This document shows positions 19,185 to 34,485 of a DNA stretch of 64,000 bases, one piece after another. The notes below the pieces were generated by a model. It had not been told where the DNA came from and made no database searches. It was given only the letters and a program-made list of their open reading frames with translations. The stretch spans positions 1 to 64,000 of the IMG/VR virus record IMGVR_UViG_3300042888_001941. One strand, written 5' to 3'. This DNA comes from a virus. Numbering within the stretch: position 1 is the first letter of the stretch; each line of letters begins with the position of its first letter. Made by a program: the position numbers and the translations under genes.

Positions 19185-19243
19185 TTTCGGTCCTTTCGTC
19201 GTTGTTAGGATAATTATAGCAGGATAATCAGGAAAAGTAAACC

Positions 19244-19813
19244 TTAGCACCCGAATGCCTTGCGGCAGTCAGGTCCTAGGAAGAAGGCTCGGCTGGTTGG
19301 ATCTGTGAGCTCGGCGCCACACTTTCCGCAGCAGGCGTAGTGCTCACCGAAGAGGCGAGCGTACTTATATGGATGTGAGGCAATGATGTCCGTAACGATG
19401 ATAACATCACCGGCAGGCATCTTGTCTCGGTTGAATCCACCTACTGAGCCAGTGAGGCGGCGCATGAAGAGCGTGTTCTCGTACTCACGAATCTCAACGA
19501 AGAGTAGGTCACCCGTAAGAGGTGTGTCCTGGAGTGGAGCGATGTCTAGCTCGTCCACAGGGATTGCGTACTTAGACTTAGGTACGCGTGAAAGGCAGCG
19601 CTGAAGAGCTGATGTTGGCTCGGCTAGCTTAGGCAAGCCAAGCAGCATAGAGATTACCGCGGAGGCTGAACGCTTAGTAATGGTGCTAAGCGCAGTGAAG
19701 CGGTCATCGACAAATTGCTGGATGATTGGGTCACCCGCAGGGAGCTCGCGTGAATCGAGGAGCTCGTTGATAAAGGTAATTTGCTTATCGCTTGCTGGGA
19801 ACGTAGTAGTCAT
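19244..19813 (-). CDS. DUF6011-like zinc-finger protein
   Basis: C-terminal CGKCGAELTDPTSRA..LGPDC; start MTTTF by ATGA overlap. Confidence 0.7.
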   Translation of the reverse strand: MTTTFPASDKQITFINELLDSRELPAGDPIIQQFVDDRFTALSTITKRSASAVISMLLGLPKLAEPTSALQRCLSRVPKSKYAIPVDELDIAPLQDTPLTGDLLFVEIREYENTLFMRRLTGSVGGFNRDKMPAGDVIIVTDIIASHPYKYARLFGEHYACCGKCGAELTDPTSRAFFLGPDCRKAFGC

Positions 19814-19983
19814 GGACGAACTCCCCACCACTTAAGCCCACCGGTGTGAGCAACTGAACCTTCGTAGGTAACTGCCCATGAGGCAGCCTCGCCGTAGCTG
19901 GCGCATGTCTGAAATACTGGAGCCATTCCGTGGAATGTATACATGTAGACTGTTTGGTTTCCAGCCTCGTATCCTTTTGTCAT
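19810..19983 (-). CDS. Hypothetical protein (57 aa)
   Basis: My translation MTKGYEAGNQ...KWWGVRP; follows the promoter copy at 20011. Confidence 0.5.
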   Translation of the reverse strand: MTKGYEAGNQTVYMYTFHGMAPVFQTCASYGEAASWAVTYEGSVAHTGGLKWWGVRP

Positions 19984-20039
19984 TTGGGTTCCAATCCGTT
20001 TGTTATGGTTAATTATAACAGGTAAATTGGGAAAATGGC

Positions 20040-21434
20040 CTATCTGACCTTAAATGTTCCTCCGCCTCGGAAGCTAGGCATACGTCTAGCCGCAGGGCTC
20101 TTAGCCTTAATGGTTCCGCCAACGAAACCGGCAGGTGGCTTGATGAGGAGAGCTGTGAGGGCGTGGACCAGGGCGTCTACTCGGTCTGGGGATTTGCCTT
20201 CGCCTGGAATCCAAGCGCACATCTGGGACTCGAGGTCGCCTAGATAGCCAACGTGGTGGACACGGTTCTGCTCGTAGGCAAGCGTGATTGGCTCGGCGCG
20301 AAGTGCCTTGCCGTATTTGGAGTGAACCTCAAGGACCTTTACAGTTGGGTCAATTGTGTTAATGGCGTTTCTTACCAAGGCACCACCTTGGTTTACTTCG
20401 GCTACCACAGGGCAACCCCACTTGCGAGCCATTTGCACTACCTTGTTAGCCCAGACCTCCGGTGAACCGTGAATGGAGGCGTCCTCAAGTACCCAGCTCT
20501 GACGCTTGTAAAGATCTCGGTCACCGGTAGAAGCTACGACGACTATGCCGCATTCATCTCGAGGGTTCTCGGCTACAGATGGGTCAACGCCAATGCACCG
20601 CAAAGGTGTGCCCATTGGCAACTGCATCTCTCGGCCACGGTCGATGAGCTCCTGTGTCCAGAGAGCTCCTTCAACATCTGAAAGCATCTCACCGTAGAGC
20701 TCTTGCGCAGCCAAGCGAGTTCCTTCGTACACTCCAACGATTGCATCGATGTAAGCTTGAGAAAGGTTTCCGCTGTTGTCCAGTGTAGAACCTTTTGTAA
20801 TAACTACCTTGCCAGTCTTCTCAGCTTCGGCGATGAGCTGGTAGAGAAGCGGCACACGCTTAGGAGTTGTCGTAATCATAATTTTTGGATTCGCGCCAAG
20901 ACGAGTGCCAACGCGTAAGTTGTCAAAGGCTGTCATGCCAGCTGCATCAGGCGTTTGCCTCCATGCAGCAACTTCATCTCCCCAGGCGTGCGTGAACTGA
21001 GGTCCACGAAGGGAGTCTGGCTCGTCAGCTGTGAAGCATGTTGCCGTATTGCCGTTAGGCCAAGTTAGTCTTCGTTTGGACGGTTCGTATAAAGGGCGTT
21101 CGCTTGGCGGAGTTACGTTAATAATTCCAGACTCGCCTTCAACGATAACGTCACGTACGTCAGCGGCAGTACGAGCTACCAACGCGAAACGGCGCTGGCC
21201 AGTTGTTGTGTACTTAGCTTCTTCACGCACCCACTCGGCTGCCGTACGAGTTTTGCCAGCTCCGCGACCAGCGATGTAAGCCCAGATGTTCCAATCGCCT
21301 GGTGGAGCTTGCTGCTCTGGGCGTCCCCACACAGACCAGTCCCAGAGGAGATTGTCTGGATCAAAACCCGCAAGGATTTCATTGCGCTGCTCCTCAGGGA
21401 GATGCGCAAGCTGTTCCATCAAACTTTTAGCCAT
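20040..21434 (-). CDS. terL: Terminase large subunit
   Basis: Walker A AGRGAGKT, LRGPQF..AW.DE, ITTTP, nuclease GVDP, AEVNQGG, SPDRVDA. Confidence 0.95.
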   Translation of the reverse strand: MAKSLMEQLAHLPEEQRNEILAGFDPDNLLWDWSVWGRPEQQAPPGDWNIWAYIAGRGAGKTRTAAEWVREEAKYTTTGQRRFALVARTAADVRDVIVEGESGIINVTPPSERPLYEPSKRRLTWPNGNTATCFTADEPDSLRGPQFTHAWGDEVAAWRQTPDAAGMTAFDNLRVGTRLGANPKIMITTTPKRVPLLYQLIAEAEKTGKVVITKGSTLDNSGNLSQAYIDAIVGVYEGTRLAAQELYGEMLSDVEGALWTQELIDRGREMQLPMGTPLRCIGVDPSVAENPRDECGIVVVASTGDRDLYKRQSWVLEDASIHGSPEVWANKVVQMARKWGCPVVAEVNQGGALVRNAINTIDPTVKVLEVHSKYGKALRAEPITLAYEQNRVHHVGYLGDLESQMCAWIPGEGKSPDRVDALVHALTALLIKPPAGFVGGTIKAKSPAARRMPSFRGGGTFKVR

Positions 21435-21451
21435 GTGTACTATAGTACATT

Positions 21452-21491
21452 AAAAAGAAAAAGACTAGGCGGGTGAATGCCTAGTCTTTTT
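21452..21491. terminator. Intrinsic terminator, possibly bidirectional
   Basis: AAAAAGACTAGGC-8nt-GCCTAGTCTTTTT hairpin with A and T tails. Confidence 0.8.
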
Positions 21492-21572
21492 CCCCAGAAA
21501 GGAGTCTCGAGCAAATGGATTGGAGTACATTCGCGAGACCCTCAGTTAGGAAATGCAATAACCTAACCGAGT
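21452..21572 (-). ncRNA. Candidate ~120-nt three-hairpin small RNA
   Basis: Extended -10 at 21578-21589; stems 21541-50/21562-71 and 21504-09/21534-39; then the terminator. Confidence 0.5.
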
Positions 21573-21584
21573 AAGATAATTATA

Positions 21585-22514
21585 TCACGCAAATATGGAA
21601 ACTTCGTCATGAATCTTCGAGACCGTAGTTGCCCATACCGCAGGTGTGTGGTCAAATGGTTGATACCCACCGGCACCGCCAATGAGAACACGACCTTCCG
21701 AATATGCAGAGGCAATACGCCCAACAGTTGCAGCCGCATCTTCATATCCTGGATAATCGAACTGGAGAGTTGATAATGGATCTGTCTTATGAGCATCAGC
21801 TCCAGCAGCAACTAAAACAACATCTGGCTTTATCTTGTCAGCAAGTTGCTCGATTTCTCCCATAGCTCTACGAAACTCATCATCACCGCTTGCCGGATCC
21901 AATGCCCAGTTATAGACACCTAGCTCAGGGAAGTGCCCCTTTAGTCCAGTGCCTGGGAAGATTACCGAATCGTGAATGCTACAAGTTACCGCATCTCTGT
22001 TACCCGTAAGTAAGTTCTCAACGCCATCACCATGATGAGCATCCCAGTCGATGTACATGACCTTCATGCCGTTTTTGTTGAATTCACGTGCAGCCCAAGC
22101 CATATCGTTGAATACACAGAAACCAGACGAGTGATTGTACTGCGCATGATGCTTAGCTCCCTGAGGATTAAAGCCAACCTTTAGCTCGCCAGCTAGCATC
22201 TTCTCAGTAAGACGAACAGTGCCCGCAAACATATGAAGAGCTACTTGCCCCATGTGCTTATTGTCTGGACTCCATTGCCCGCTATGCCCACGGTCAAGTA
22301 CATCAGCTACGTAGTACGCATCATGAATAGACTCAACACGCTCTCTGTCTCCCGCAACAATATCTGGAGAAACAAGAACGATGTCCTTGTCTTCTTTTAG
22401 AAGTTCGGTGGCGTACTTAGCTCTTACTGGATTAGTTGGGTGCGAATCTCCTTCGCTGCCAAGCTTCCAGTCTAAATAGATGTCGCCGTATGCGACGTGT
22501 AGCTTATTTTTCAT
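21585..22514 (-). CDS. Zn-dependent deacetylase, histone deacetylase/AcuC family
   Basis: HP.NP.R, HHA, SGFCVFND, IDWDAHHGDG, SIH, FPGTG, GADAH..DPL, GGY. Start reset to MKNKL. Confidence 0.92.
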   Translation of the reverse strand: MKNKLHVAYGDIYLDWKLGSEGDSHPTNPVRAKYATELLKEDKDIVLVSPDIVAGDRERVESIHDAYYVADVLDRGHSGQWSPDNKHMGQVALHMFAGTVRLTEKMLAGELKVGFNPQGAKHHAQYNHSSGFCVFNDMAWAAREFNKNGMKVMYIDWDAHHGDGVENLLTGNRDAVTCSIHDSVIFPGTGLKGHFPELGVYNWALDPASGDDEFRRAMGEIEQLADKIKPDVVLVAAGADAHKTDPLSTLQFDYPGYEDAAATVGRIASAYSEGRVLIGGAGGYQPFDHTPAVWATTVSKIHDEVSIFA

Positions 22515-23016
22515 TTGTAGTTGCGTCCTTAGCATGTAGGTAGTCAACGAAGTCGTCGTTGAGCAGTACGGCATTAGATCTCTTGTCCCGCATCAGCTGA
22601 ATCGCATCAGCAGAAGAGTATCCTTCAAGCATGAGGGCAAGACCCATCGTTAAGCTAGAACGGTTAATCCCAGCTTGACAACGAATCAATACTCGCTTGC
22701 CAGATTTCCAAGCGGCATGTGCAAATGCAGCTGCCTCATGGAGAGAAGCGTAATCCGCATTGCCTTCAAGACCTGAGTCGTAGAAGCCATAACGAAGTTC
22801 TTGCACAAACCAGTCAACTGGATTTGCCCAAGCGTAAAGAGTTACTACCGTATCAAAATCATCTTTAGTGATAGCACGAGATCCATGAATGTTTGCTGCA
22901 TCCTCAATCGTGTCATCGTCGTCTGTTCCACCAAGAAATAATCCTGGGAGTATCTCACTCCATAGGGGGAAGTCCCAGTCGATGTTGTGAACTGGTGCGT
23001 ATGAAGCATTAGCCAT
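22504..23016 (-). CDS. Dual-specificity/tyrosine protein phosphatase
   Basis: SEILPGLFLGG; CX5R loop VLIRCQAGINRS; overlaps the deacetylase start. Confidence 0.9.
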   Translation of the reverse strand: MANASYAPVHNIDWDFPLWSEILPGLFLGGTDDDDTIEDAANIHGSRAITKDDFDTVVTLYAWANPVDWFVQELRYGFYDSGLEGNADYASLHEAAAFAHAAWKSGKRVLIRCQAGINRSSLTMGLALMLEGYSSADAIQLMRDKRSNAVLLNDDFVDYLHAKDATTNEK

Positions 23017-23018
23017 TA

Positions 23019-23237
23019 TTACCCTCCGGTCATCTCTAACCAGCACTTAGGATGCGTGCCAGAAATCATTTGTTCACGAATTGCAATGTCTAGCTCAGGG
23101 AATGCCTCTTGAATCAGCATACCGAAGTTCCATTGAAGGAAGCCCACGGCTGGAACTTCGACAACGCCTTGCTCGCCGCACATGCCGCAAACTGGAGTTT
23201 CGACCAGGTAGGTTTCATTTGTAAGGTCTGTTGACAT
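23019..23237 (-). CDS. Small zinc-binding protein
   Basis: CGMC..IQEAFP.L..REQMISG.HP.CW; first gene after the promoter at 23267. Confidence 0.65.
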   Translation of the reverse strand: MSTDLTNETYLVETPVCGMCGEQGVVEVPAVGFLQWNFGMLIQEAFPELDIAIREQMISGTHPKCWLEMTGG

Positions 23238-23299
23238 TTTCTCGTCCTTTCGTCGTTTGTTATATCTATTATATCAGGTAATGTTACCTGCGAGTACCA

Positions 23300-23866
23300 C
23301 TACTCTTCTTGTATGTACGTATGAATCTCTCCACCGGAGTAGATGTCATGCTTGCAAGCTATCTCGATAGCTCGCCGCAAAACCTTTTCGGCAGCCTCAG
23401 GAGTCTTAACCTTTTGGAAGTGAAGAGCTTCGAGAGCTCCAAGAGCTAAGTCTCCACCACTGCCGGAGTAGTAAACGTTCCTAGCTTCTCTATCCCAGCT
23501 GTAATCATTAAAAATTGGATACAGAACTCCACGAACCGAAACAATTAAGTTCGAATCGTGCCAAGCTGCATCACCGTCTTCTTTTCCTTCAAAGCCAGCA
23601 TCAACGAAAGCTTTACGAAGTGACGGTATAAACTTCTTTGTCATAAAAACGTCTAGGTCTTCACTACGAGTAGGAGTTGGAGGTTTCCAACCGAACTGAG
23701 CAATGTTGCCACCACGTGATGCGCCAGACACTGCAATGAGAACTCCATTGTTGTCTACGATTTTGTGAGTCGCAAGGTCCATGAAACGACCGTCCTCATC
23801 AGATGCTCGTGAATCACAGCCGATGACTGACCAGCCATCCCCTTGAATTGCCGCAAGCGTAGTCAT
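23300..23866 (-). CDS. Proteasome beta/HslV-like Ntn threonine protease
   Basis: N-terminal M-T-T, DSR, KI, GSGG..A.G.L, DIYSGG. Confidence 0.85.
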   Translation of the reverse strand: MTTLAAIQGDGWSVIGCDSRASDEDGRFMDLATHKIVDNNGVLIAVSGASRGGNIAQFGWKPPTPTRSEDLDVFMTKKFIPSLRKAFVDAGFEGKEDGDAAWHDSNLIVSVRGVLYPIFNDYSWDREARNVYYSGSGGDLALGALEALHFQKVKTPEAAEKVLRRAIEIACKHDIYSGGEIHTYIQEE

Positions 23867-23931
23867 GATTCTCCCTAGATGTTTCCCAAGCGCCTAGGAA
23901 AACTGTATCCTAAGCGCCTGGGTTACGTCTA

Positions 23932-24264
23932 TTAGACGAGATCTATAATTGCAATTGGCACTGTTACGTTGGCAGATTCAACCGCACCTGTGGTTGGATT
24001 TACCCTTGAGAATCTACCCATAGGTGTCTCAAGTCGAACGGTAACCTTTGTACGGTTCTTCCCTGAGATTGTGGCATACTGCCCAACCATGTAACGAGTT
24101 CCTGTGGACTCATTGAAGCGTACACGCGCACCAATGTTGTAATCATTGATGGTTAGTGCCGCACGTGCCTTTGGGGTACGTAAAGCAATGGCGTCCTTAA
24201 TCTTGCCAAGGTCTGAGTCCATTGAACCAGAGTTGATGGCGTCAAGAATATCCTGAGTGTTCAT
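23932..24264 (-). CDS. Hypothetical protein with SH3-like C-terminus
   Basis: Start reset to MNTQ behind the cassette SD; IGARVRF..G..ATI..NRTKVTVRL. Confidence 0.6.
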   Translation of the reverse strand: MNTQDILDAINSGSMDSDLGKIKDAIALRTPKARAALTINDYNIGARVRFNESTGTRYMVGQYATISGKNRTKVTVRLETPMGRFSRVNPTTGAVESANVTVPIAIIDLV

Positions 24265-24301
24265 CCTACTTCCTTTCGTCGTTAGGATAATTATATCAGG
24301 T

Positions 24302-24547
24302 TTATCCGTCAACCTCTGCCTTGAAATACTGGATTCCATCAGCTTTTTGTACTTCATCCTCTACCCAAGGTAGACGAGTACGGCTGATATCCAGGAGGCT
24401 GTTGGTGAAAGCTACCGCAGTCTTCTTGGCAGCGCCAAGAGAAGTATGCGCTGCATAGCGAGCCTCACCGGTGGCGAGGTCCTTTACGGTTACAAGCCAG
24501 GCTGCCTGTGGGGCTTTGTTCTTTAACAATGTAGCTACTACGCTCAT
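24302..24547 (-). CDS. Hypothetical protein
   Basis: 81 aa; SD GGAAGGA; stop abuts the next promoter copy. Confidence 0.6.
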   Translation of the reverse strand: MSVVATLLKNKAPQAAWLVTVKDLATGEARYAAHTSLGAAKKTAVAFTNSLLDISRTRLPWVEDEVQKADGIQYFKAEVDG

Positions 24548-24559
24548 TGGTTTTCCTTC

Positions 24560-24784
24560 CTAGTTGTTGTCATTGGGGTCGAACCATCCTTCACGTGAGT
24601 TGCTTTCACCGCAGGCTGAGCAGATCCATTCTGCTACCCAGGTGACAACACCGTGAGAATACTCTTGAGTTGTGATGACAGACTGCTCACGCAGGCAGTC
24701 ATCGTTGCCGCATTCGAGATCCATGTCTCCTTCTGCAGCTGAGGAGAAGCTGATGGCGTCTCCTTCGTAGTACGAGCTGCTCAT
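24560..24784 (-). CDS. Small zinc-ribbon protein
   Basis: MSSSYY..CGNDDC..CSAC; TAATG coupling. Confidence 0.55.
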   Translation of the reverse strand: MSSSYYEGDAISFSSAAEGDMDLECGNDDCLREQSVITTQEYSHGVVTWVAEWICSACGESNSREGWFDPNDNN

Positions 24785-24972
24785 TAGTCTACAGCCAGCG
24801 AGCTGCAAAGCGGCAGTGCGTGATGACGCCACTGGTCGATGACTCTGTCAATTGACTCTACGTATCCAACGTTCTCTTTTAGAACGAGTAGCACGGCAAA
24901 GTCAGATAGAGCTCTATTTTGAGCTATGACACAGTCCTCAAGCGAGCGAGAGCAGTGTTCACAGAGACTCAT
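24784..24972 (-). CDS. Hypothetical protein
   Basis: 62 aa; translationally coupled on both sides. Confidence 0.5.
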   Translation of the reverse strand: MSLCEHCSRSLEDCVIAQNRALSDFAVLLVLKENVGYVESIDRVIDQWRHHALPLCSSLAVD

Positions 24973-25139
24973 GAAGCCTCCGCATGAAGTGGTTTTGCTG
25001 TACGGAACTTAACAAGAACATCAGAGACTCTGTGAGCTTCCTCGAACATTCCGAGAGACTCGTACATTGCCTTCTGCTTTCCGAGAGCAGCAAGGATAAC
25101 GATGAGGTCAGCGTTATCTATCTTTATGTCGTACTGCAT
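24969..25139 (-). CDS. Hypothetical protein (56 aa)
   Basis: My translation MQYDIKIDNADL...; directly behind the cassette promoter and SD. Confidence 0.6.
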   Translation of the reverse strand: MQYDIKIDNADLIVILAALGKQKAMYESLGMFEEAHRVSDVLVKFRTAKPLHAEAS

Positions 25140-25174
25140 GGTAGTCCTTTCGTCATTAAGTAAATTATATCAGG

Positions 25175-25399
25175 TTATGGCAGCTTTTCGTCCAGCTCCA
25201 CGAATTTTGTTGCCCATTTGGTTAGGGCTGCTTCACTTCTGTTCTTGTGATGACCGCACAGGAAGATCTCGCCATTGACGCCAATAATCTTCCACACTGC
25301 ACGAGCAACACGGCATGAGTCACATTCAACCCAGCCAGAGAAAGTTTCTTTCGCTTCTTCCTCAACGAGCTGGACTTCTTCTTCCACAATCGACTCCAT
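25175..25399 (-). CDS. Small actinobacterial-type zinc finger (CxxC...CxHH)
   Basis: CDSCRVARA..GEIFLCGHH; SD AAAGGAG. Confidence 0.6.
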   Translation of the reverse strand: MESIVEEEVQLVEEEAKETFSGWVECDSCRVARAVWKIIGVNGEIFLCGHHKNRSEAALTKWATKFVELDEKLP

Positions 25400-25478
25400 G
25401 ACTCTCCTTTGTTAGAACGAAACTATCATACTTACAGAGAGAAGACCAGAGCGGGAATCCGCCCTGGCCTCTCTGCAA

Positions 25479-25721
25479 TTATGCTGAGTAAGCGATTGTG
25501 TAACCTTTGTCGAGCTTTGATTGGATCTTGTCCATCGCTGCCCAGCGAGCACCTTGCTCACTTGAGAAACGCAATGTCTTGCTCTGACGGTTTGGCTTTT
25601 CTGCCATTCCCCAGACTGCGGTAAACGAGTTACCATTAACTGAAAGTTCGTAAACTTTCTTCTTTCCTAGAGCTCCGCGTGTTCCGTCGGATGCTTTTAC
25701 TAGGCACCATTTTGTCTGCAC
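25479..25721 (-). CDS. WGR-domain-like protein
   Basis: KKVYELSV..TAVWG..Q.KT..F..A..KI..KL.KGY; GTG start behind the cassette SD. Confidence 0.65.
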   Translation of the reverse strand: MQTKWCLVKASDGTRGALGKKKVYELSVNGNSFTAVWGMAEKPNRQSKTLRFSSEQGARWAAMDKIQSKLDKGYTIAYSA

Positions 25722-25810
25722 TTTGTATCCTTCCGTCGTTTTCACCCTTTGTGGTGATGGGTTAATTATATCAGGTAAATCAGGAAGATAGTGCCTTACT
25801 CGCTAGTAAC

Positions 25811-26074
25811 TTATTGGTCAGACCAGAGTTCCTCGCGGAGGGCTTCCTCGTATAGATCACCGCGGTAGGAATTGGAACCGAAGGAGATGTCCTCCTCCAT
25901 GAGCTTATTCAGGGACAGGACTGCGGTATGACCCTCAGCCTCGAACATAATGACCAGCTTCATATCAGATTCGTTTGCGTCATCAACTACCGCAACCTTG
26001 AAGGGTAGCCCAGCTACTCCGTTGCGATGGTAGTCCGCATCAACTATCTGAAGTTTGTTTGGATCTAAGCTCAT
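25811..26074 (-). CDS. Hypothetical phage protein
   Basis: 87 aa; YHRNGVAG.PF and NSYRGD motifs. Confidence 0.6.
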   Translation of the reverse strand: MSLDPNKLQIVDADYHRNGVAGLPFKVAVVDDANESDMKLVIMFEAEGHTAVLSLNKLMEEDISFGSNSYRGDLYEEALREELWSDQ

Positions 26075-26238
26075 TTCTTTTCTTTCCTCTCAGGTCGTCG
26101 TTCTGAAATCTCATGCGTTGCCACATCCTTTCCGTGTTTGTGAAGCCATGCCTTAGCGACGTCTTCATTCACGAACTGGCCTAGCCACTTCCCATCAGCA
26201 TCGTACACATTCACGAGTTCGTATAAAGGATTACTCAT
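26071..26238 (-). CDS. Hypothetical protein (55 aa)
   Basis: My translation MSNPLYELVNVYDADGKWLGQF...; overlaps both neighbours. Confidence 0.55.
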   Translation of the reverse strand: MSNPLYELVNVYDADGKWLGQFVNEDVAKAWLHKHGKDVATHEISERRPERKEKK

Positions 26239-26833
26239 TGGTTAGTCGATTCGCTTGCTTAATCACCGTGTAGGACTTACTTTGTCCAGGTGATTCTTTG
26301 TATCCGTATCGAACGAAACGAAACTGGATTGCTCCATGGGTGACTCCAAGAAGCTTTCCAAGCCGATAAACGCTTACTCCTTCTTCGGTGTGAGCTTTCC
26401 AGAGGAGTGCAGTGTACTCTTCAGCTTCAGCTCGTCCTTGCGAGTGGTCCCATCGAAGTTTCCGTGCGATTGGCTGTAGTTCTTTTAGTCGCGCAAGCGT
26501 CTCAGGGTTTGGATCTGTCTGCTCCGCTCCGGAGTACACCATGACTTCTTCAGTCGGTAACTCTGGGACAGGGTAACTGCCTGGAGCTTGCTGCACAAGG
26601 TACACCAACTCTGGGTTGGCTTGAGTCTCAAGTTGACGCACACGCTCACGAGTAAGTCCTAGTGAGTCTGCAACAGCCTGAAGCGTCCAGCCTTTGATAC
26701 GAAGAGCGTATATGTACGCCGCACGTAATTCTTTTTCCTTTACAGGAATGAGACCTAAGGCAGTCGTAACTACATCAGGTAGTTTGAGATGTTGGCGTTG
26801 AGTCACCAAAGCTTTCTTGTAGATTCTTTTCAT
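26231..26833 (-). CDS. Tandem HTH protein with sigma70 region-4-like helix (paralog 2)
   Basis: GWTLQAVADSLGLTRERVRQLE and GVSVYRLGKLLGVTHGAI. Confidence 0.75.
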   Translation of the reverse strand: MKRIYKKALVTQRQHLKLPDVVTTALGLIPVKEKELRAAYIYALRIKGWTLQAVADSLGLTRERVRQLETQANPELVYLVQQAPGSYPVPELPTEEVMVYSGAEQTDPNPETLARLKELQPIARKLRWDHSQGRAEAEEYTALLWKAHTEEGVSVYRLGKLLGVTHGAIQFRFVRYGYKESPGQSKSYTVIKQANRLTNE

Positions 26834-26985
26834 TAGTTATGATTCAAGAAATCTTCAACAGCCTGGTTGATAGCGTCCTTCACAGATTCGGAAAGCTTTG
26901 CTAGCTCTTCGAAAGAGAATGTTCGCTCTGACATTTCCTCGAGGTCATCTACTGAGAGACTTGCCTCGTAAACCATTTTACTCAT
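26833..26985 (-). CDS. Small acidic protein (50 aa)
   Basis: My translation MSKMVYEASLSVDDLEEM...; behind the cassette SD. Confidence 0.6.
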   Translation of the reverse strand: MSKMVYEASLSVDDLEEMSERTFSFEELAKLSESVKDAINQAVEDFLNHN

Positions 26986-27023
26986 GATAGTCCTTTCGTC
27001 GTTGGTTTGTTAATTATATCATG

Positions 27024-27326
27024 TTATGCTAAAGAATGTACACGCATCTGATACTCTACAGTAGCAAGTGCGACAGTTGAGTTCCCACCGACGTTCCAGT
27101 GCATTAACTCATCTAACTCTGGAGTTCCGAGTTCGTATCGCTTCCAATCGTAGATAGTTGCAACAGTTCCGTCTTCGAATTTAAGACACCATTCAGTAGT
27201 TACCTTGTCGCCTTCACCGTAATACTCAGGTTCACCGAAGACTTCTATGAGTCTACGCAGTGTAGTCTCTGTGTATCCTTGAAGTGAGGTCCCATCAGAG
27301 ACGCTTAGATCTTTTATAAACTTCAT
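27024..27326 (-). CDS. Hypothetical phage protein
   Basis: GTSLQGY..L..VFGEP..DKV..EW..ATIYDWK..W.VGG, a pattern I recognise from small phage proteins. Confidence 0.7.
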   Translation of the reverse strand: MKFIKDLSVSDGTSLQGYTETTLRRLIEVFGEPEYYGEGDKVTTEWCLKFEDGTVATIYDWKRYELGTPELDELMHWNVGGNSTVALATVEYQMRVHSLA

Positions 27327-27327
27327 T

Positions 27328-27507
27328 TTAGTTCTCCTCTGCTAACTTAAGTACTGCGGTAAGAGTTTCGATTGCTGACTCATAATACTCGTCTGACTCG
27401 TAGTACTCGTTGTCAGCCAACGGAGCATCATTGTTCGCATCCTCTTGCGCGATGATTAAGTTCGCGCGAAAGGCTTGGATCTTTTCTACCAATTCTTCTT
27501 TTGACAC
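27328..27507 (-). CDS. Small acidic protein (59 aa)
   Basis: GTG start behind the cassette SD; my translation MSKEELVEKIQAFRANL... Confidence 0.6.
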   Translation of the reverse strand: MSKEELVEKIQAFRANLIIAQEDANNDAPLADNEYYESDEYYESAIETLTAVLKLAEEN

Positions 27508-27579
27508 TTTGTATCCTTCCGTCGTTTGTCGTGGTTAATTATATCAGGTAAGTATGACAAGTAAGGGCGCAGTCACAAG

Positions 27580-27825
27580 TTATGCGCGATAGCCGGATTG
27601 AGTTTTTTCGAGTTTTTCGACAGGCGCGCAGTTTGTGCAGAGCATATGAGTTGGCCAGACAGAGCTTGGATATACGGCGAGCATATATTTTGTGACGTTG
27701 TTGCAGTCGCGGCAAGCGTGAGAAAAGATTTCAGAAGTTTCGATTTCGCGATTAACGCAGTAGTAGCGAGTTTCGAAAGTTGGGCTGTCGTAGAAATATG
27801 AGCCGTGACGAAGGTTTGCGGACAT
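27580..27825 (-). CDS. Small zinc-finger protein
   Basis: CRDC...CTNC; promoter copy at 27867. Confidence 0.55.
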   Translation of the reverse strand: MSANLRHGSYFYDSPTFETRYYCVNREIETSEIFSHACRDCNNVTKYMLAVYPSSVWPTHMLCTNCAPVEKLEKTQSGYRA

Positions 27826-27893
27826 GATGTCTCCAGTCGTTATATTAACGTATTCGTTAATAAATGAATTATATCATGTTTATAATAAAAATA

Positions 27894-28160
27894 TTACGAA
27901 AGACTCAGCTGCTGTTCTAGCTTCTGCATCTTTTCAACGACCTCAATACTCCAGTTCACGTCTGTCCCGCACTTGGGGCAGTACTCTGGCCAGAAGTCAT
28001 CTGGAGTAGACGTGTCGATGATGACGGTGGATTCGCCGCAAGTAATTTCTGCACTGTCCTTGAGGAACATCCACTGGAATCGTTGAAGGTTCGTTAAAGA
28101 ACTCCACTCAACTGCAGGGCCTTCGCACTCAAGGGTCATGAGCACTGGCAGCTTACTCAT
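27894..28160 (-). CDS. Small zinc-ribbon protein
   Basis: CPKCG; ATGA coupling. Confidence 0.55.
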   Translation of the reverse strand: MSKLPVLMTLECEGPAVEWSSLTNLQRFQWMFLKDSAEITCGESTVIIDTSTPDDFWPEYCPKCGTDVNWSIEVVEKMQKLEQQLSLS

Positions 28161-28336
28161 GAGATTTCCACATCAGGAAACCATCGGATAATTGTTTGGA
28201 GGAGGTGGTCGTAATCACCGCTTGTCATTTCCTCAGTGAAGCCCGCAATCTCGTCGTGACGACCTAGCTTCTTTAGCTCTCGCTGTCCTGCCGCAATGAT
28301 AGCAAACGCGTTGCCGTCTGAAATCTGTACTGCCAT
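28157..28336 (-). CDS. Small hypothetical protein (59 aa)
   Basis: My translation DGNAFAII..EMTSGDYDHLLQT; cassette SD variant ACGACGGAGGA. Confidence 0.7.
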   Translation of the reverse strand: MAVQISDGNAFAIIAAGQRELKKLGRHDEIAGFTEEMTSGDYDHLLQTIIRWFPDVEIS

Positions 28337-28363
28337 GTTATCCTCCGTCGTTTGTAATTATAG

Positions 28364-28439
28364 ACGCGGCAGGAGCTGGGATTGTTTCGTGCCTTCTGCA
28401 GAAGGTGGTTGTTTGACCACCAGTGCTTCCCTGCCGCGT
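28364..28439 (-). ncRNA. Structured leader/ncRNA candidate A
   Basis: Closing stem ACGCGGCAGG/CCTGCCGCGT with internal hairpins, between the promoter at 28446 and the SD at 28341. Confidence 0.5.
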
Positions 28440-28457
28440 TGGTTTAATTATATCAGG

Positions 28458-28646
28458 TTACTCTGTCTCGATGTACACAGTAGAGCCGTGTTTCGTGATG
28501 ATGTCCTCGAACTTGTCGCCTTCGATAGAATCAAGCTCAATGCCTTCCGGCAAGTCTGATTCCTTGAGTACGAATACGTAGTCCGCATCCGAGCCAACCC
28601 ACCAGTCACCGTTAGGTGACGCGTACCACACTCTTTCCGTAGCCAT
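28458..28646 (-). CDS. Small acidic protein
   Basis: Start reset to MATERVWY. Confidence 0.55.
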   Translation of the reverse strand: MATERVWYASPNGDWWVGSDADYVFVLKESDLPEGIELDSIEGDKFEDIITKHGSTVYIETE

Positions 28647-28648
28647 GG

Positions 28649-28801
28649 TTAACCCACCTGGAACGCATCGCAATAGCGACATTGGTACCAGTCGCCAAGC
28701 TTTGAGTCTTCTACGTACTCGTGGATGTAGTCGTGCTGGTCATCGGTAGCGCAAAAGATATCGTCACCGCGCCGTATAAAGCTGCGTGCCTTTGTTTGCA
28801 T
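28649..28801 (-). CDS. Small zinc-binding protein (50 aa)
   Basis: My translation MQTKARS..C..H..CRYCDAFQVG; behind the cassette SD. Confidence 0.6.
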   Translation of the reverse strand: MQTKARSFIRRGDDIFCATDDQHDYIHEYVEDSKLGDWYQCRYCDAFQVG

Positions 28802-28824
28802 GGTCGTCCTTTCGTCGTTTAGGT

Positions 28825-28936
28825 GTTCAAGGGCCGCGGTGATACTTCGGCCAATCTTGCCAGAGGTCTCTTGCGAGACGTGGACTCGGGCGTCGCATGT
28901 TCCGCCTAGTTTAACTAGTGGCTAGCACCCTTGAAC
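28825..28936 (-). ncRNA. Structured leader/ncRNA candidate B
   Basis: Closing stem GTTCAAGGG/CCCTTGAAC; internal GUCUC-GCAA-GAGAC GNRA hairpin; between the promoter at 28942 and the SD at 28807. Confidence 0.55.
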
Positions 28937-28943
28937 GAGTTAA

Positions 28944-29864
28944 TTATATCAGGTTGTACTGCTTTTGGACCACATCTGTGACCGAACGGTAAGCCTTGTC
29001 CAGCTTGGACTGGATGGTTGCCCATAGGGAGTCGTATGTTCCACCTTCTGAGAGGGACTGAGTCCACTTAGACGCCACCGCAACCGTTGCTGCTGATGTT
29101 CCAAGCACAAGGGTGTTTGACCCGTTGAGGAGAGTTGTGTTGTAACGCCCTAGAGCATAGAGATCTAAGTCCGCGCCACCGTTAGAGTTTGGCATGATTG
29201 GATAGACCCAACCGGTGACTGCACGAATCGTATAGCGTGTATCCGTTGCTCCTACCGTGATTGCTTCTGGTATACATGCCGGATAGTCAACCTTGGTTTG
29301 ATTGGAACGGTTGCCCGCCGCTGTGAACACACCAATGTTGCTTGCCTTAAGCTCTACAATACGAGACTGCAGTGGAGTTTCAATAGGGCATGCCGCTTCT
29401 TTGTACGCACGTCCCATAGAGATAGAGACCGCACCGACGTTTAGTCGAGCTGAGTTAGCCGCAACCCAATCAAGAGCGAGCTGCACGGCTTTAGTTGTGT
29501 ACGTATTGGCGAAGCCTTTGTCCGACTTGCCGATGATACGAATAAGCACGAACTGAGTTGAAGGGTTAACTGCACTAGCAATCGACGCCATCTGCGTGCC
29601 GTGATTAAACGTCCTGTCCTTAGCTCCGTCCGTTGCCGCTAGCGATGCTGCACCTGGGCCAGTCATTGATGCTTGCCCGTTAGGACACTTACCGAACTCG
29701 ATAAAACATGCCTCATCAATTACCTTGCCCGCAAGGAATGGAAGCTGTGTGTTAAACCCAGAGTCAATGATGACAAGAGTCTTTGGTTGTGTTGCCTGCG
29801 CTGATGGAGTCAGCCCTGCCGCAAGAGCAAGAATGATTCCGGTGATTGCTAGTTTGGTTTTCAT
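28944..29864 (-). CDS. Secreted subtilisin-like (S8) serine protease
   Basis: Signal peptide MKTKLAITGIILALAAG; triad IIDSG, HGTQM, GTSAA; oxyanion AAGN. Confidence 0.88.
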   Translation of the reverse strand: MKTKLAITGIILALAAGLTPSAQATQPKTLVIIDSGFNTQLPFLAGKVIDEACFIEFGKCPNGQASMTGPGAASLAATDGAKDRTFNHGTQMASIASAVNPSTQFVLIRIIGKSDKGFANTYTTKAVQLALDWVAANSARLNVGAVSISMGRAYKEAACPIETPLQSRIVELKASNIGVFTAAGNRSNQTKVDYPACIPEAITVGATDTRYTIRAVTGWVYPIMPNSNGGADLDLYALGRYNTTLLNGSNTLVLGTSAATVAVASKWTQSLSEGGTYDSLWATIQSKLDKAYRSVTDVVQKQYNLI

Positions 29865-29949
29865 GTTCGTCCTTTGTTTGTCGTTTGTCATTAAGTTAGC
29901 TCCGGTGCAGGTATACTTTGACGGAAGGGTTCCCGCACCGGAATATTGT

Positions 29950-31773
29950 TTACGCCGCGTTCCTGCGACCAATCTTTGATAGAGCGTCTGCGGCTGCCTG
30001 ACCAATAGTCACTGCCGCATCTGCTGGGTCCTGAACCTTTGCAAGAACTACTGCTGATGTTCCTGAAGTGATTCTGTCTGCATAGCTACTACGCTCGTAC
30101 TTGTCGAACGGTAGCCACAGAACTGCAACACCTGCCTTGTCACATTCACGCACCCACTTTTTCGCATGGTCACGCTCTGCATCTGTGTAGCAACCATCGC
30201 TAACAACTACGAGTAGTCGTGCGCCTGAACCTGCAAGAAGATTCAACCCACCATCAAGTGCCTTGAACGCCTTGTCGAACTTTTCAGTTCCATCAGGTGC
30301 AGTGTAGACATTTACCTTATCAAGGTGCTGACCTGGCTTGAGTGTAGGGAATACATCTTCGCCATAGTAGACCATAGCAGTCTGTGCTTGAACACGTCGA
30401 CCTGCTTCTGACATTGCCCACGCAGTAACTGCCATAGGGTTCATCGCACTTGCCATAGAACCTGAGATGTCTACCATCACACCAATCTTGAGTGTTGGGT
30501 CATCTGTGTGCTTGCGCACTGTACGCTTCCATGGCTCTGCATGCATCATTGAACCTTGAGCGCGATACGCAGCTTCCTGAACTATCGCACGAGTGCGAAG
30601 ACGTCCTGGAGGAAGAATAGATGAGATCTCGTGTTCATCGCGCTCACGATACTTCGCACGCTCGAGGAGATTCGCAATCTTGACTGCTGCTGCGCGCTCT
30701 GAAGGTAGTGGGTCACGTGTCTCGGTGAGACGTGAACGACTTCCTGCAGTAACGCCCATGTCTGCGGTAGTCTTACCGAAGACATCATTGGCAACCTTCT
30801 TGTGGTCCTTCTGCTGACTTGCAGCCTTTGAGCGATTATCGACAACCTGCTGCCAATCTTCTTTCTGCTCTTGGTCCTGCACTTCATCGCCAACTGCGAT
30901 TGCAACGTTACCTGCTGCTTCATCAAGGGCTTCCTTAATGTCACCAATGATTCCATCAACGATGACAAGGATCTCTGAACCAGGTCCTCCTGGAGTTGGC
31001 TTCTCTGGTTCACCACGCTCGGTGGCGAGATCTGCAAGAAGCTTTTCCCACTCGCGAGCAAGTGCATAGAGGTTACGTGGGTCTGTGTGATTATCGTGTG
31101 CTTGGAAGCGAATCCAGATATCACGAAGACTTGCGTAGACTTCATTGCCGAGGAAGTCGATGACAATAGCTTTGATCTCTGCAACATCTGCAAAGTCAAC
31201 TGAACCTGCATCTGCGCGAGCACAAGTGAGAGCTGCGAGTCCTGCGACTGCACGAACACCATGAGCTAGGTGCTCATCTGCATGAGCATTGATGTCGTGT
31301 AGAACAATTTCCAATGCGCAAGCGCGAAGGAAGACTCGATTAGCTGGGAAGTTCACAACACCATGATGTTCGATGCGTGATTCCTCGAGAGACATAAGGG
31401 CTCTGTACTCGTTCATTGAGAGTTCTTCAAGAGCCTTCTCAAGATTGTAGCGTGAGTATCGAGCATGGAGTGCCTCATGGAAGATCGCACCTGCAGCCTT
31501 TGGCCAGTCGAAAAGTGTGTCACGTTCACGAAGGTCACCAATGATCTCTGGTGAAGCACCTGCGCCAAATGCGATGTCAACATTGACCTCTACCTCAGCC
31601 AATGGTGGATTGAAGCAGGCTGGGCTTGGTCCTCCAGCTCCGGGTCCTACGTATGCAACGATGTCTGAGCGTCCTGCCCATGTATTGACAAGGTTGCCAA
31701 TCTGTGCGCCAACGGGGAGCCACTCTTCTGGAGTACGCTCCGCACGTGTCGCGGAATGCTTAATGTGTCCCAT
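29950..31773 (-). CDS. VWA (CobT-like) protein with N-terminal HExxH metallopeptidase-like domain
   Basis: HEALH..LEESRIE; MIDAS DISGS and VVSDG; start reset to MGHIK behind the cassette SD. Confidence 0.8.
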   Translation of the reverse strand: MGHIKHSATRAERTPEEWLPVGAQIGNLVNTWAGRSDIVAYVGPGAGGPSPACFNPPLAEVEVNVDIAFGAGASPEIIGDLRERDTLFDWPKAAGAIFHEALHARYSRYNLEKALEELSMNEYRALMSLEESRIEHHGVVNFPANRVFLRACALEIVLHDINAHADEHLAHGVRAVAGLAALTCARADAGSVDFADVAEIKAIVIDFLGNEVYASLRDIWIRFQAHDNHTDPRNLYALAREWEKLLADLATERGEPEKPTPGGPGSEILVIVDGIIGDIKEALDEAAGNVAIAVGDEVQDQEQKEDWQQVVDNRSKAASQQKDHKKVANDVFGKTTADMGVTAGSRSRLTETRDPLPSERAAAVKIANLLERAKYRERDEHEISSILPPGRLRTRAIVQEAAYRAQGSMMHAEPWKRTVRKHTDDPTLKIGVMVDISGSMASAMNPMAVTAWAMSEAGRRVQAQTAMVYYGEDVFPTLKPGQHLDKVNVYTAPDGTEKFDKAFKALDGGLNLLAGSGARLLVVVSDGCYTDAERDHAKKWVRECDKAGVAVLWLPFDKYERSSYADRITSGTSAVVLAKVQDPADAAVTIGQAAADALSKIGRRNAA

Positions 31774-31869
31774 GTCTATCCTTCCGTCATTGATTGATGA
31801 GTTAATTATATCAGGTGGAGAGGGGTCCCAGGCACCCACACCTAGAACCCCTCCGGCCCACAGCCAAGA

Positions 31870-32862
31870 TTAGATCTTGGCTGGTTGGCAACCTTCACCG
31901 TAGACTCGAGTGAACACATCCGCAACGACGGGGCGGTCCAGTTCAGGAGCTGCTGCGATGATGTTCGCAATTGCGAACTTGGTGCCAAATGTCTTGGAGA
32001 TGTCACGGAATGCGAGTAGTTCACGCATCTGTGGGCACCAGCCAGTTTCACCTGATTGTTGACGACGTGACAAGTTCTGTGCAACTGTCACAATCTGCTG
32101 AGGTGCGCCAAGCTTCTTGGCAAGCACCCAGTCTGTAGTCATCTCTGCTTGCACAATGAAGCGAGATAGAAGAGCTTCAGAGAGTCGAACTCCAGGAGCG
32201 TTTGGATTGGTTGCTGCGATTACGTAGAACCCTTCCTTAGCTTTTACAGTTCCGCGCTCTGGGTTTGCAGTGACAGTGTACTCACCACGACCATCCATGA
32301 GACCATACACACCTGCCATGACCTTAGGGTCAACAAGTCCTACCTCATCAACGAAGAATGGTTTTCCTTCTTCAGCTGCTTTTAATAGTGGACCATCGAC
32401 CCAGTCGAAGCCACCTGTAGGTGTTTGTACGTAACCACCAATGAAGTCTGATAGTTCTGTGTCGCCTGTACCAAGAACTGTACGCACGTCATTGCCGAAC
32501 GCAGCTTCTACGAGTGCAGTCTTACCGCAACCTGGAGCTCCGTACAGAAGAATGTACTGCTGGTTCTTGCGCGCTTCGCGAAGGACCATGACATCGTCAT
32601 GCTCTCCCCACTTGCGTGCATGGTACTTGTCACCATTAGGGCGCTTGTATGTAGAGTCTTCCCCTACGAATGCATCTGCTGATATCACTGGAATAACCTT
32701 TGTCTTGGGTGTTGGACGATTTCCAACTTTACCCTGTGGTTGAACTAGTGAGTCGAGAGATGCAGCGAGTTCATCGTTCATCTGCTGTGCTACAACAGTG
32801 TAAACACTGTCGCTTAGGTTTGGGTAGATCTTGTTTAGAGATTCCATTACTGCTGTTGTCAT
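31870..32862 (-). CDS. MoxR/CobS/CbbQ-like AAA+ ATPase
   Basis: GAPGCGKT, FFVDE, AATNP, LSEALLSRF. Confidence 0.9.
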   Translation of the reverse strand: MTTAVMESLNKIYPNLSDSVYTVVAQQMNDELAASLDSLVQPQGKVGNRPTPKTKVIPVISADAFVGEDSTYKRPNGDKYHARKWGEHDDVMVLREARKNQQYILLYGAPGCGKTALVEAAFGNDVRTVLGTGDTELSDFIGGYVQTPTGGFDWVDGPLLKAAEEGKPFFVDEVGLVDPKVMAGVYGLMDGRGEYTVTANPERGTVKAKEGFYVIAATNPNAPGVRLSEALLSRFIVQAEMTTDWVLAKKLGAPQQIVTVAQNLSRRQQSGETGWCPQMRELLAFRDISKTFGTKFAIANIIAAAPELDRPVVADVFTRVYGEGCQPAKI

Positions 32863-32892
32863 TTGTTTGTCCTTTGTCGTTGGGTGGGTGGG

Positions 32893-33351
32893 TTAGGACA
32901 CGAAGAGTGATTCGCCGAACCCAAGGGAACGACGTACTCGTGTGATGCGTCCTAGTACTTTGTAAGGAGTCTTTCCGGCACGAATGCCATCAAGGTCATC
33001 AACTGATACTTCTACATAGATTGGCTGCTTATACATTAGGTATCCATAAGCTGCAAGTTGGTTGAACGTTGAAGCAACGAACTCAAAGCGAGTCCTTGCT
33101 GTGTCAATAGCTTCCTCGGTAGTGCGCTTCTGAAACACACCGAACTCATTTACGCTGATGGTAGGGAGTCCTGCATGCTTCCAACCTTTGCGAGGCTGGG
33201 CTGAAGAGATCTGGCGGCGGAACATCATTGAAGGTACGTTCTTGCCACTGGATGAGATTCCATCCGGAGTGATGAGGACCTGGTACGTTTGAGTCTCCTT
33301 GCGGAGCTCCATGTACATGGCCTTTCCTACAACCTTGTCTTTATCTGACAT
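32893..33351 (-). CDS. Hypothetical protein, first gene of the AAA operon
   Basis: 152 aa behind the cassette promoter and SD. Confidence 0.7.
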   Translation of the reverse strand: MSDKDKVVGKAMYMELRKETQTYQVLITPDGISSSGKNVPSMMFRRQISSAQPRKGWKHAGLPTISVNEFGVFQKRTTEEAIDTARTRFEFVASTFNQLAAYGYLMYKQPIYVEVSVDDLDGIRAGKTPYKVLGRITRVRRSLGFGESLFVS

Positions 33352-33402
33352 GGGTTATCCTTTCGTCGTTTGGGTGAATATAGAACAATTATATCAGGTT
33401 AA

Positions 33403-33624
33403 TTAGATGCTTCCGAACAGTTCCTGTGCTTCACGGGAGATCTGCTGGAGAGCGTTTTCATCAGATGGGTACTTTACAAGATTCCCTGATGCTGTAGCGG
33501 TAAGGTGCGTGTTGATCTTGAGAAGTCCTTGAGCGTCGAACTCAAGAGTAGCTCCTGCAAGGTTGTTGTCAACGTAGCGCTTGAGTGCTTCAAGCGTCTT
33601 TAAGTCTTCTATATTAAGTTGCAT
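33403..33624 (-). CDS. Hypothetical protein
   Basis: Start reset to MQLNI behind the cassette SD. Confidence 0.6.
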   Translation of the reverse strand: MQLNIEDLKTLEALKRYVDNNLAGATLEFDAQGLLKINTHLTATASGNLVKYPSDENALQQISREAQELFGSI

Positions 33625-33662
33625 GGGTGTTCCTTTCGTCGTTGGTTCAATTATATCAGGTT

Positions 33663-33953
33663 CTAGCAGTGGCAAGCGCCACTGCTAGAAGGGGTCACGA
33701 AGCAGACTCCGCAGACCTGAGCCTTTGGGGCTGGGGTAGAGTTGCGAGGTGTAGTGAGCCCAGAGGTTGTGAGCTTATTAGATACTGCGTAGTAACTGCG
33801 ACCTAGCTGCTTCGCAATATCCTTAATGGATACCTTGGCAGCGCGGAGAGTTTCGATGGTGCGGATTTCCGCCAGCGTCCATTCCTCATTGAGGTTAACG
33901 GCTGTGGCGAGTGAGAAGCTTTGGGCTTCGCGGTTCCAGAGTTGGTTTTGCAT
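33663..33953 (-). CDS. HTH protein with C-terminal Cys cluster
   Basis: WTLAEI..SIKDIAKQLGRSYYAV; CGVC..C.C; start reset to MQNQ. Confidence 0.65.
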   Translation of the reverse strand: MQNQLWNREAQSFSLATAVNLNEEWTLAEIRTIETLRAAKVSIKDIAKQLGRSYYAVSNKLTTSGLTTPRNSTPAPKAQVCGVCFVTPSSSGACHC

Positions 33954-34144
33954 ATTCTTTCCTTCCGTCGTTGTGTATGGATCAATTATATCAGGGAAGA
34001 TCAGGAATATGGGGTAAATAGGGTAAATAGACAAAAAAAGTTTTTAGGAGGGTTTTGGCGTATATTCCTGAAACCACCTGATATAATAGATACCATCAGA
34101 CCAACCGGCCTGGTAACGACGTAAAGACAAAGGGAAGGGACCAT

Positions 34145-34477
34145 ATGTCCAGCACCGCAGTTCGCACCGAGGTTACAGAGATTACTGTAACCAGCACCGT
34201 AGCTCACTTGGACGAGACAGTAGATGCTCTCATCAAGGAGTTCGCAAAAGCTAAGAAGGATATGAAAGTCCTCGAGGCTAAAAAGAAAGCTGCCGAAGAT
34301 AAGATTCGTCAGCTTATGGGTGACGCCAAGATTGGATTTATCAACGGCGTACAGCGTGTGGAAATTAAAGACCGCACCACAACCAAGATCGACCGTGAGC
34401 TATTGCAGGAAGCATATCCTGACGCTTACACCGCAACACTTAAGTCTACAGATTACACAATCGTAGACGCTAAGTAA
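34145..34477 (+). CDS. Coiled-coil phage protein
   Basis: Has its own promoter copy (34077), SD and terminator; KIDRELLQEAYPDAY resembles C-termini of phage recombination-associated proteins. Confidence 0.7.
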   Translation: MSSTAVRTEVTEITVTSTVAHLDETVDALIKEFAKAKKDMKVLEAKKKAAEDKIRQLMGDAKIGFINGVQRVEIKDRTTTKIDRELLQEAYPDAYTATLKSTDYTIVDAK

Positions 34478-34485
34478 CCTTAAAT

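Follow-up and report, generated by a model that had tools for sequence, protein, structure and literature searches.

Most of what is known about regulatory RNAs of phages comes from a small number of enterobacterial models. The antisense RNA sar of phage P22 uses a loop to pair with the ribosome-binding region of an mRNA from the same phage, whose translation is blocked as a result. In Gram-positive bacteria, small RNAs (sRNAs) rich in C or in C and U (FsrA, RoxS/RsaE, RNAIII, the actinobacterial 6C and the streptococcal csRNAs) act independently of Hfq and use pyrimidine-rich loops or linkers that pair with Shine-Dalgarno (SD) sequences; to our knowledge, Actinobacteria have no Hfq. A further group, 3'-end sRNAs of the DapZ/MicL type, has its promoter within or at the end of an upstream gene and a terminator common to the sRNA and the upstream mRNA. 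As described in the available text of a 2025 review, which makes no mention of actinobacteria or mycobacteria, the loops of the c4 RNA of phages P1 and P7 pair around the ribosome-binding site (RBS) of the phage's own mRNA and block translation (PMC12197685). In the icaR mRNA of S. aureus, according to the available part of the original report, a C/U-rich motif (UCCCCUG) in the 3' untranslated region (UTR) pairs with the SD region of the same mRNA and prevents initiation (PMC3868564). Here, we describe a structured RNA unit directly upstream of terL, the large terminase gene, in a 64,000-nt stretch of virus DNA (the window), which is the first 64 kb of the 136,434-bp IMG/VR record IMGVR_UViG_3300042888_001941. 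The comparative evidence gives good support to this unit as a phage gene for a small non-coding RNA of ~118 nt. We further propose, at a probability of roughly 45%, that the RNA is a c4- or icaR-like antisense repressor, one loop of which would act on gene cassettes that carry the leader GGAUUGGAG.

The unit lies on the minus strand in a gap of 150 nt between the stop codon of a deacetylase-like gene and the ATG of terL. A sequence-only reading of the window had proposed a stand-alone RNA at this place, built from a cassette promoter, two hairpins, the motif CUCCUUUCU and an intrinsic terminator, and all of these parts are present on the minus strand where it had put them (Table 1). A search of IMG/VR with TerL gave 508 relatives, the best 80 of which were kept as loci. 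With a covariance model of the unit based on an RNAalifold structure (R2), we found it directly upstream of terL in 35 of the 80 loci and in the window, at an E of 1e-26 or better. It is present once in the window's genome and always ends 18 nt before the terL ATG. Among the loci without the unit, L063-L080 run the deacetylase gene straight into the terL promoter, and some others have a different gene upstream.

The 36 R2 matches comprise 23 distinct sequences, which were used for the alignments, and identical duplicates of these. Across the distinct sequences 97.3% of cells are paired, compared with 41-54% when the partners are slid, and compensatory changes occur in 22 of 37 pairs, compared with 3-10 for slid partners and with none of 500 shuffles as good. 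Covariation, which the sequence-only reading had suggested as a check, is strong. Compensatory changes are found in seven of the eight modelled pairs of hairpin 1 and in 8 of the 16 modelled pairs of the conserved terminator helix, and all four pairs of the hairpin-2 upper stem covary. Because several pairs are mostly G-U, which is possible only on the minus strand, the RNA would be read from that strand. The minus-strand RNA has a fold of -57.0 kcal/mol (z = -7.9; 0/200 shuffles as good), and the plus-strand fold is weaker (-47.6 kcal/mol, z = -5.0).

No conserved open reading frame (ORF) was found on either strand of the 23 homologues, as frame, length and presence differ. Over the unit, the minus strand has only a 21-codon ORF that lacks an SD and starts inside hairpin 2, so the earlier statement that no minus-strand gene is present holds; we rejected this ORF as a coding candidate, the ORFs at this place being variable across the homologues. 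The sequence-only reading had also considered an antisense pair, in which a plus-strand 19-amino-acid (aa) ORF (21515-21574) would be translated from the SD AGAAAGGAG. Both the ORF and the SD 10 nt upstream of it exist in the window, but only ~5 of the 23 homologues have the ORF, altered or truncated and with differing lengths and ends, and it is absent elsewhere. Moreover, the substitutions are compensatory for RNA stems of the other strand, no plus-strand promoter was found, and the ORF lies downstream of a bidirectional terminator stem, which makes such a pair extremely unlikely.

Rfam 15 gave a single gathering-level match over the window, a tRNA (60008-60080). At E values up to 10 within 21400-21650, the best match was FsrA (RF02273) with 16.4 bits against a gathering threshold of 80, and neither C4 (RF01695) nor 6C (RF01066) was among the matches. 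No published description of the element was found in the literature searched. The short unit is bounded by its own promoter and a Rho-independent terminator, which is the sequence evidence looked for in an sRNA gene. Promoter family, covarying fold and conserved terminator bear out the proposal of a stand-alone structured RNA: the unit is a real, conserved, non-coding one with its own promoter and terminator, and we infer that it is transcribed. Comparative support is strong for regarding it as a new RNA family of abundant, uncultured lake actinophages.

The promoter belongs to a repeated family. There are 16 exact copies of TGATATAAT in the genome, where ~1 is expected for a given 9-mer, and 14 of them lie on the minus strand between 21587 and 33993; the pattern TGnTATAAT has 21 sites genome-wide. 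Most cassette promoters are followed ~20 nt further on by AACGACGAAAGGA and then an ATG, whereas the sRNA promoter leads into folded RNA instead, with a transcription start predicted near 21572. The TGA of this promoter doubles as the stop codon of the deacetylase-like gene. Positions -12T, -11A and -7T are exactly the invariant columns in all 23 distinct homologues, and coding constraint does not explain them because they lie past the upstream stop codon. Three other promoters (28455 and 28951 on the minus strand, and 62055) have no nearby SD and ATG and are followed by 70-110 nt of apparently structured sequence, which may represent further RNA modules or long leaders.

We propose that the RNA would be transcribed early, from this -35-independent copy of the cassette promoter fused to the stop of the deacetylase-like gene, and that the intrinsic terminator would end the transcript just before a late, apparently leaderless terL promoter. 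Transcripts reading through from the deacetylase gene would end at the same terminator, and the structure may therefore also form the 3' end of that mRNA. It might have no other role, serving only in cis as the structured 3' end of the deacetylase/phosphatase mRNA, a stabiliser and a terminator that insulates the late terL promoter from early transcription. The unit does stand at the border between early and late genes, directly before the terL promoter in 36 of 36 cases, read-through transcripts must stop at its terminator, and in relatives the same loop hairpin sits in 3' UTRs without a promoter of its own. However, a terminator needs neither two extra covarying hairpins nor an invariant 10-nt loop nor a conserved promoter, and insulation is dispensable, given that L063-L080 join the deacetylase gene to the terL promoter without any terminator. 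A purely cis-acting element is, in our judgement, unlikely.

The best-conserved open segment of the sRNA is the hairpin-2 loop, UACUCCAAUC, which the sequence-only reading overlooked. In 18 of the 23 homologues it contains CUCCAAUC, and together with its closing C it is complementary to GGAUUGGAG. In the loci collected, the 10-mer TACTCCAATC was found in 22 distinct flank contexts and forms a hairpin loop in 19 of them, on at least ten different stem sequences that often carry sense-strand G-U pairs. The loop hairpin also occurs in 3' UTRs after a WGR-like gene, in relatives without the terL-proximal RNA, and two contigs that have the terL-proximal RNA carry a second copy. A single operon of L200 runs from the leader through two genes to the loop hairpin and a terminator. 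Judged by these contexts, the loop is a portable module. The WGR-like gene encodes 80 aa ending in KGYELAYAV (L200 1886-2128 and homologues), and in many relatives the hairpin with the invariant loop comes next; the window's homologue (25479-25721, minus strand; 54% identity) has no such hairpin behind it. In L041, L042, L044, L048, L049 and other loci without the sRNA, the gene before terL encodes a protein with AYTPILEENR, and within the DNA of this gene, ~58 nt ahead of terL, is ACTCCAATCC; this 10-nt identity to the sRNA loop could be due to chance, common origin or common function.

A matching leader forms the second half of the argument. Scanning IMG/VR for GGATTGGAGATCC(1-6 nt)ATG gave 79 matches, 21 of which, on 19 contigs, lie ~20 nt behind TG[A/T]TATAAT and are true cassettes; the other 58 lack the cassette architecture and look like chance. 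At least four unrelated genes have this second leader in front of them: a 56-58-aa family, genes for an acidic 84-aa protein and for a 93-94-aa HTH-like protein, and one further gene. The leader is hence a portable module, like the common GAAAGGA leader. The 93-aa protein matches HTH/transcription-regulator PHROGs, and for the 57-aa protein encoded in the window no Pfam or PHROG match was found. In relatives the leader reads GGATTGGAG(A/T)(T)CC, which pairs over 9-10 bp with the loop.

Loop and leader counts were made on 41 contigs of at least 12 kb from the 80 TerL loci (1.10 Mb). The 9-mer occurs 55 times in them, against 8.4 expected and 2 for a reversed control. A sense-strand leader is present in 13 of 27 contigs with the loop hairpin, compared with 0 of 14 contigs (464 kb) without it (Fisher 0.0011, a value that ignores relatedness), with strand and context of these classes inspected in all contigs save G029, for which they were taken from a spacing identical to that of G028; one of the 13 was assigned by spacing in this way. 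Conversely, among the 19 contigs that have the leader, the loop 9-mer is present in 15 and a variant sRNA in one, and the other three are 4-11-kb fragments.

In the window, the cassette directly after terL, with its 57-aa gene, has the best loop pairing of 20 cassette leaders in the genome (-12.2 kcal/mol), and the sRNA unit lies 1.5 kb from this leader. We propose that the open hairpin-2 loop, (G)UACUCCAAUC(C), would pair over 8-10 bp with the second cassette leader, GGAUUGGAG(A/U)(U)CC, which holds what appears to be the GGAG SD of a small set of unrelated early genes. Such pairing would hide the SD and lower translation, and the 57-aa gene after terL is the candidate target here. Pairing in vivo, repression, transcription and the start site are all things that we infer. 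In cassettes with the second leader (e.g. L100 1501-1518), GGAU-UGGAG-AUCC could itself fold into a hairpin of 4 bp with the GGAG SD exposed in its loop, so that the first contact with the sRNA loop could be a loop-loop kiss (CUCCA with UGGAG). At ~1300-1400 of L209, a -10-like GATATAAT stands before GGATTGGAG; no ORF comes after GGATTGGAG, and the next cassette promoter lies ~30 nt further on.

Several results weigh against antisense repression through this loop. For this genome alone, the loop match is not significant, as 27 of 200 random window sets reach -12.2 kcal/mol, and it extends over only 8 bp because the leader reads GGAUUGGAA. A whole-genome duplex scan with loop 1, loop 2 and the linker on both strands gave no outstanding target, only the antisense self-match and matches at background level. 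The exact leader is missing from 14 of the 27 loop-bearing contigs, most of which are fragments. Furthermore, loop and leader do not covary: L014 has the loop GAUUCAACCCC but the standard leader, and no matched leader was found in the 4-kb flanks of the variant loops (L011/L014; L017/L025/L027). Loop and leader may co-occur only through joint inheritance, and the conservation of a leader with GGAG could reflect nothing more than its quality as a ribosome-binding site.

A protein-binding hairpin would equally be expected to keep its loop while its stems vary, and the loop may bind a phage or host RNA-binding protein, or act as a decoy, rather than serve as an antisense seed. Protein-operator hairpins classically show such a pattern, here a single loop kept on ten or more unrelated stems, and several relatives have the hairpin behind the same small WGR-like gene, but a protein site leaves unexplained why the exact complement of the loop is a conserved, co-occurring leader module, and no candidate RNA-binding protein was identified. 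We regard a protein site as improbable. At the DNA level, the loop sequence and its complement could instead be sites at which the cassette array recombines or is shuffled. Portable cassettes form a mosaic in this region, and CTCCAATCC and GGATTGGAG are inverted repeats on either side of terL here and flank a promoter at 100-800 bp in some relatives. Against this stand the sense-strand G-U pairs in the stems of most contexts, which are A-C mismatches on the other DNA strand, the constant location of the second repeat at the SD position before an ATG, and the lack of an adjacent recombinase, so that this explanation is very unlikely. Of the readings weighed, antisense repression by the hairpin-2 loop is the one that we carry forward.

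The loop of hairpin 1 (21551-21561) has a (G/U)YCAU core in most homologues (UUGCAUUU, GUUCAU, GUCAUU) and could be an anti-start-codon element. Its pairing with the cassette leaders of this genome was not enriched (124/200 random sets as good).

The sequences of loop and leader allow a more specific version of antisense repression. Read from the sequences, three positions distinguish the loop CUCCAAUCC from the 16S tail CUCCUUUCU, and the three matching positions distinguish the leader GGAUUGGAG from the perfect SD AGAAAGGAG. With the ribosome, the leader would form GGAG pairing with two U-U mismatches beyond it, and with the loop it would pair perfectly. Hairpin loop and portable leader may hence constitute a private SD/anti-SD channel, the loop being a re-coded 16S tail and the leader the matching re-coded SD; we put this forward as a doubtful but specific idea. 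If true, any gene given the GGAUUGGAG leader comes under the control of the hairpin RNA, and the hairpin comes in two forms, a stand-alone early sRNA like that of the window and the 3' end of an operon. In two genomes from the likely host lineage, GGATTGGAGTA with up to one mismatch showed no enrichment (in G001, 12 versus 22 for the reversed control).

The sequence-only reading had placed the activity in the linker CUCCUUUCU between hairpin 2 and the terminator, as a mimic of the 16S tail that would block SD-led mRNAs and spare leaderless ones such as terL. In such a model the linker would bind SDs generally, of the GAAAGGA and GGAG types. The earlier reading's statements about the sequence stood up: the linker DNA CTCCTTTCT is identical to the 16S gene end GGATCACCTCCTTTCT of two genomes from the likely host lineage, and the linker is complementary to the GAAAGGA behind the promoters of at least ten cassettes. 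The linker 9-mer alone is not remarkable, given four occurrences in the genome against ~1 expected. Conservation, which had been named as a check, gives a mixed picture: the full motif is present in 1 of 23 homologues, UCCUUUC in 10, CCUUUC in 15 and CCUUU in 21, and the motif is missing in two. CCUUU(C) is under some constraint, because the surrounding linker varies in length and sequence, but this constraint may be structural, with CC pairing with GG at the base of hairpin 2 in the modelled fold. The consensus structure contains this pairing, with one A-U compensation in two related sequences. An alternative basal register (GUCUC with GAGAC) that frees the CC is broken in 4-6 sequences, and the two registers fit about equally well. 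Of the anti-SD that had been described as exposed, UUUC is predicted to be open (unpaired probability ~1.0), but CC reaches only ~0.3-0.4 in most sequences.

The sequence-only reading had suggested a check of pairing with cassette RBSs; against the cassette leaders of this genome, the linker did no better than random windows (143 of 200 sets as good). The division into SD-led mRNAs that are blocked and leaderless ones that are spared fits terL, which has no SD, but not the late structural genes, which are SD-led with GGAG-type sequences, so that a general SD blocker would spare only terL and would strike the phage's own SD-led early and late genes. The linker also gives only 7 bp, equal to the ribosome, whose numbers the RNA would presumably need to rival, and the hairpin module occurs in other contexts without this linker. 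A global anti-SD blocker, which keeps the conserved core and the SD-less terL on its side, is weakened by the rarity of the full motif and the partial pairing of its CC, and we consider it improbable as the main activity. Alongside loop-mediated repression, the linker may add a weaker, auxiliary anti-SD pairing with the common GAAAGGA leaders, and, under the idea of a private channel, an RNA that joins a re-coded loop with a wild-type tail linker could address both leader classes of the early cassettes.

Table 1 Features of the sRNA unit, its candidate target and neighbouring genes in the window.
Feature	Position	Strand	Basis or remark
Extended -10 promoter TGATATAAT	21579..21587	minus	1 of 16 exact genome copies; activity predicted
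Hairpin 1, 10-bp stem, 11-nt loop	21541..21571	minus	Fold; begins 1-2 nt past predicted transcription start
Hairpin 2, bulged stem bearing the conserved loop	21503..21540	minus	Fold and covariation
Hairpin-2 apical loop UACUCCAAUC, 10 nt, proposed antisense seed	21518..21527	minus	Predicted unpaired probability ~1.0
Linker CUCCUUUCU	21496..21504	minus	Equals 16S 3' tail of likely host lineage; CC partly sequestered
Intrinsic terminator, 15-bp stem, 8-nt loop, U-tract	21450..21493	minus	Fold and covariation
Palindrome TGTACTATAGTACA and terL ATG	21432..21449	minus	Context, outside the RNA; no SD before ATG
Candidate target cassette, promoter TGTTATAAT (20020-20012), ATG 19983, 57-aa gene	19983..20020	minus	Loop pairing 8 bp
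Leader GGATTGGAA of the 20020 cassette, with GGATTGGA	19997-19990 (GGATTGGA)	minus	Loop complement in SD position
terL, large terminase (Terminase_6N/6C)	20040-21434	minus	
329-aa histone-deacetylase-family protein (Hist_deacetyl)	21585-22574	minus	
Dual-specificity phosphatase	upstream of deacetylase-like gene	minus	

The record has a GC content of 47.8% and is estimated by CheckV to be 100% complete. DNA similarity to this stretch was found in 15 GenBank phage records, every one of an actinobacteriophage. Closest among them is Actinomycetia phage DSL-LC01, with ~70% nucleotide identity in terL; it has only 57 nt upstream of terL, and a search of DSL-LC01 with R2 gave no match. According to the available text of its description, DSL-LC01 is a lake phage assembled from a metagenome, with Actinomycetia as the predicted host (PMC10611076). 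Cellular relatives of the deacetylase gene are mostly from freshwater Microbacteriaceae such as Aurantimicrobium, and the 16S genes of the two genomes from this likely host lineage, one of them Aurantimicrobium minutum, end in GGATCACCTCCTTTCT, both of which are consistent with the actinobacterial host and 16S tail named in the sequence-only reading. The best match of the phage deacetylase in the genome collection (70% identity) is on L083, a 5-kb contig of a metagenome-assembled genome labelled uncultured Bifidobacterium, and this contig is probably a phage contig binned with a bacterium. The phage also encodes a tRNA-Gly (GCC) at window 60007-60080 on the minus strand.

About 18 small expression cassettes are arrayed on the minus strand at window 19191-35465. 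Each follows the layout TG(A/T/C)TATAAT, often fused to the preceding stop, then the leader AACGACG(A/G)AAGGA and an ATG. terL sits inside this array with a different, apparently leaderless promoter, and the palindrome TGTACTATAGTACA just past the terminator is probably this late promoter. The form (A)ATGTACTATAGTACAC-ATG, without an SD, is kept before terL in L001-L039 and L063-L080, with and without the sRNA, and in L040-L062 terL is SD-led and lies behind another gene.

The proposal provides a target hypothesis that can be tested by mutation, a 9-10-nt loop against a portable ribosome-binding leader. If it is true, mosaic early-gene cassettes carry not only promoters but also exchangeable modules of post-transcriptional control, the loop and the leader, and Actinobacteria provide a natural matched pair of non-canonical SD/anti-SD sequences.

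Compared with known systems, the RNA in its proposed action resembles c4 of P1/P7, as far as the available text describes it, and sar of P22: a small structured phage RNA, with a loop that would be directed at an RBS region and encoded near its candidate target. Unlike c4, it has its own promoter and is not processed from the target operon, it matches no Rfam family in sequence or structure, and its proposed target is a portable leader common to unrelated genes, in an uncultured phage with an actinobacterial host. The arrangement in L200, with the loop hairpin at the 3' end of an operon whose 5' leader is its complement, is like that of icaR in the part of the report available, whereas the window hairpin belongs to a unit of its own, which has a promoter and lies 1.5 kb away from the candidate leader, and would use a 10-nt loop as seed. 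With the Gram-positive SD-targeting sRNAs it has in common a pyrimidine-rich loop and linker that would pair with SD sequences, although by Rfam it is not a member of these families, and it copies the extreme 16S tail, re-coded in the loop. Like sRNAs of the DapZ/MicL type, the RNA has a promoter that overlaps the end of the coding sequence before it and a terminator in common with the upstream mRNA; unlike these, it is encoded by a phage and has as its promoter one copy of a repeated cassette promoter.

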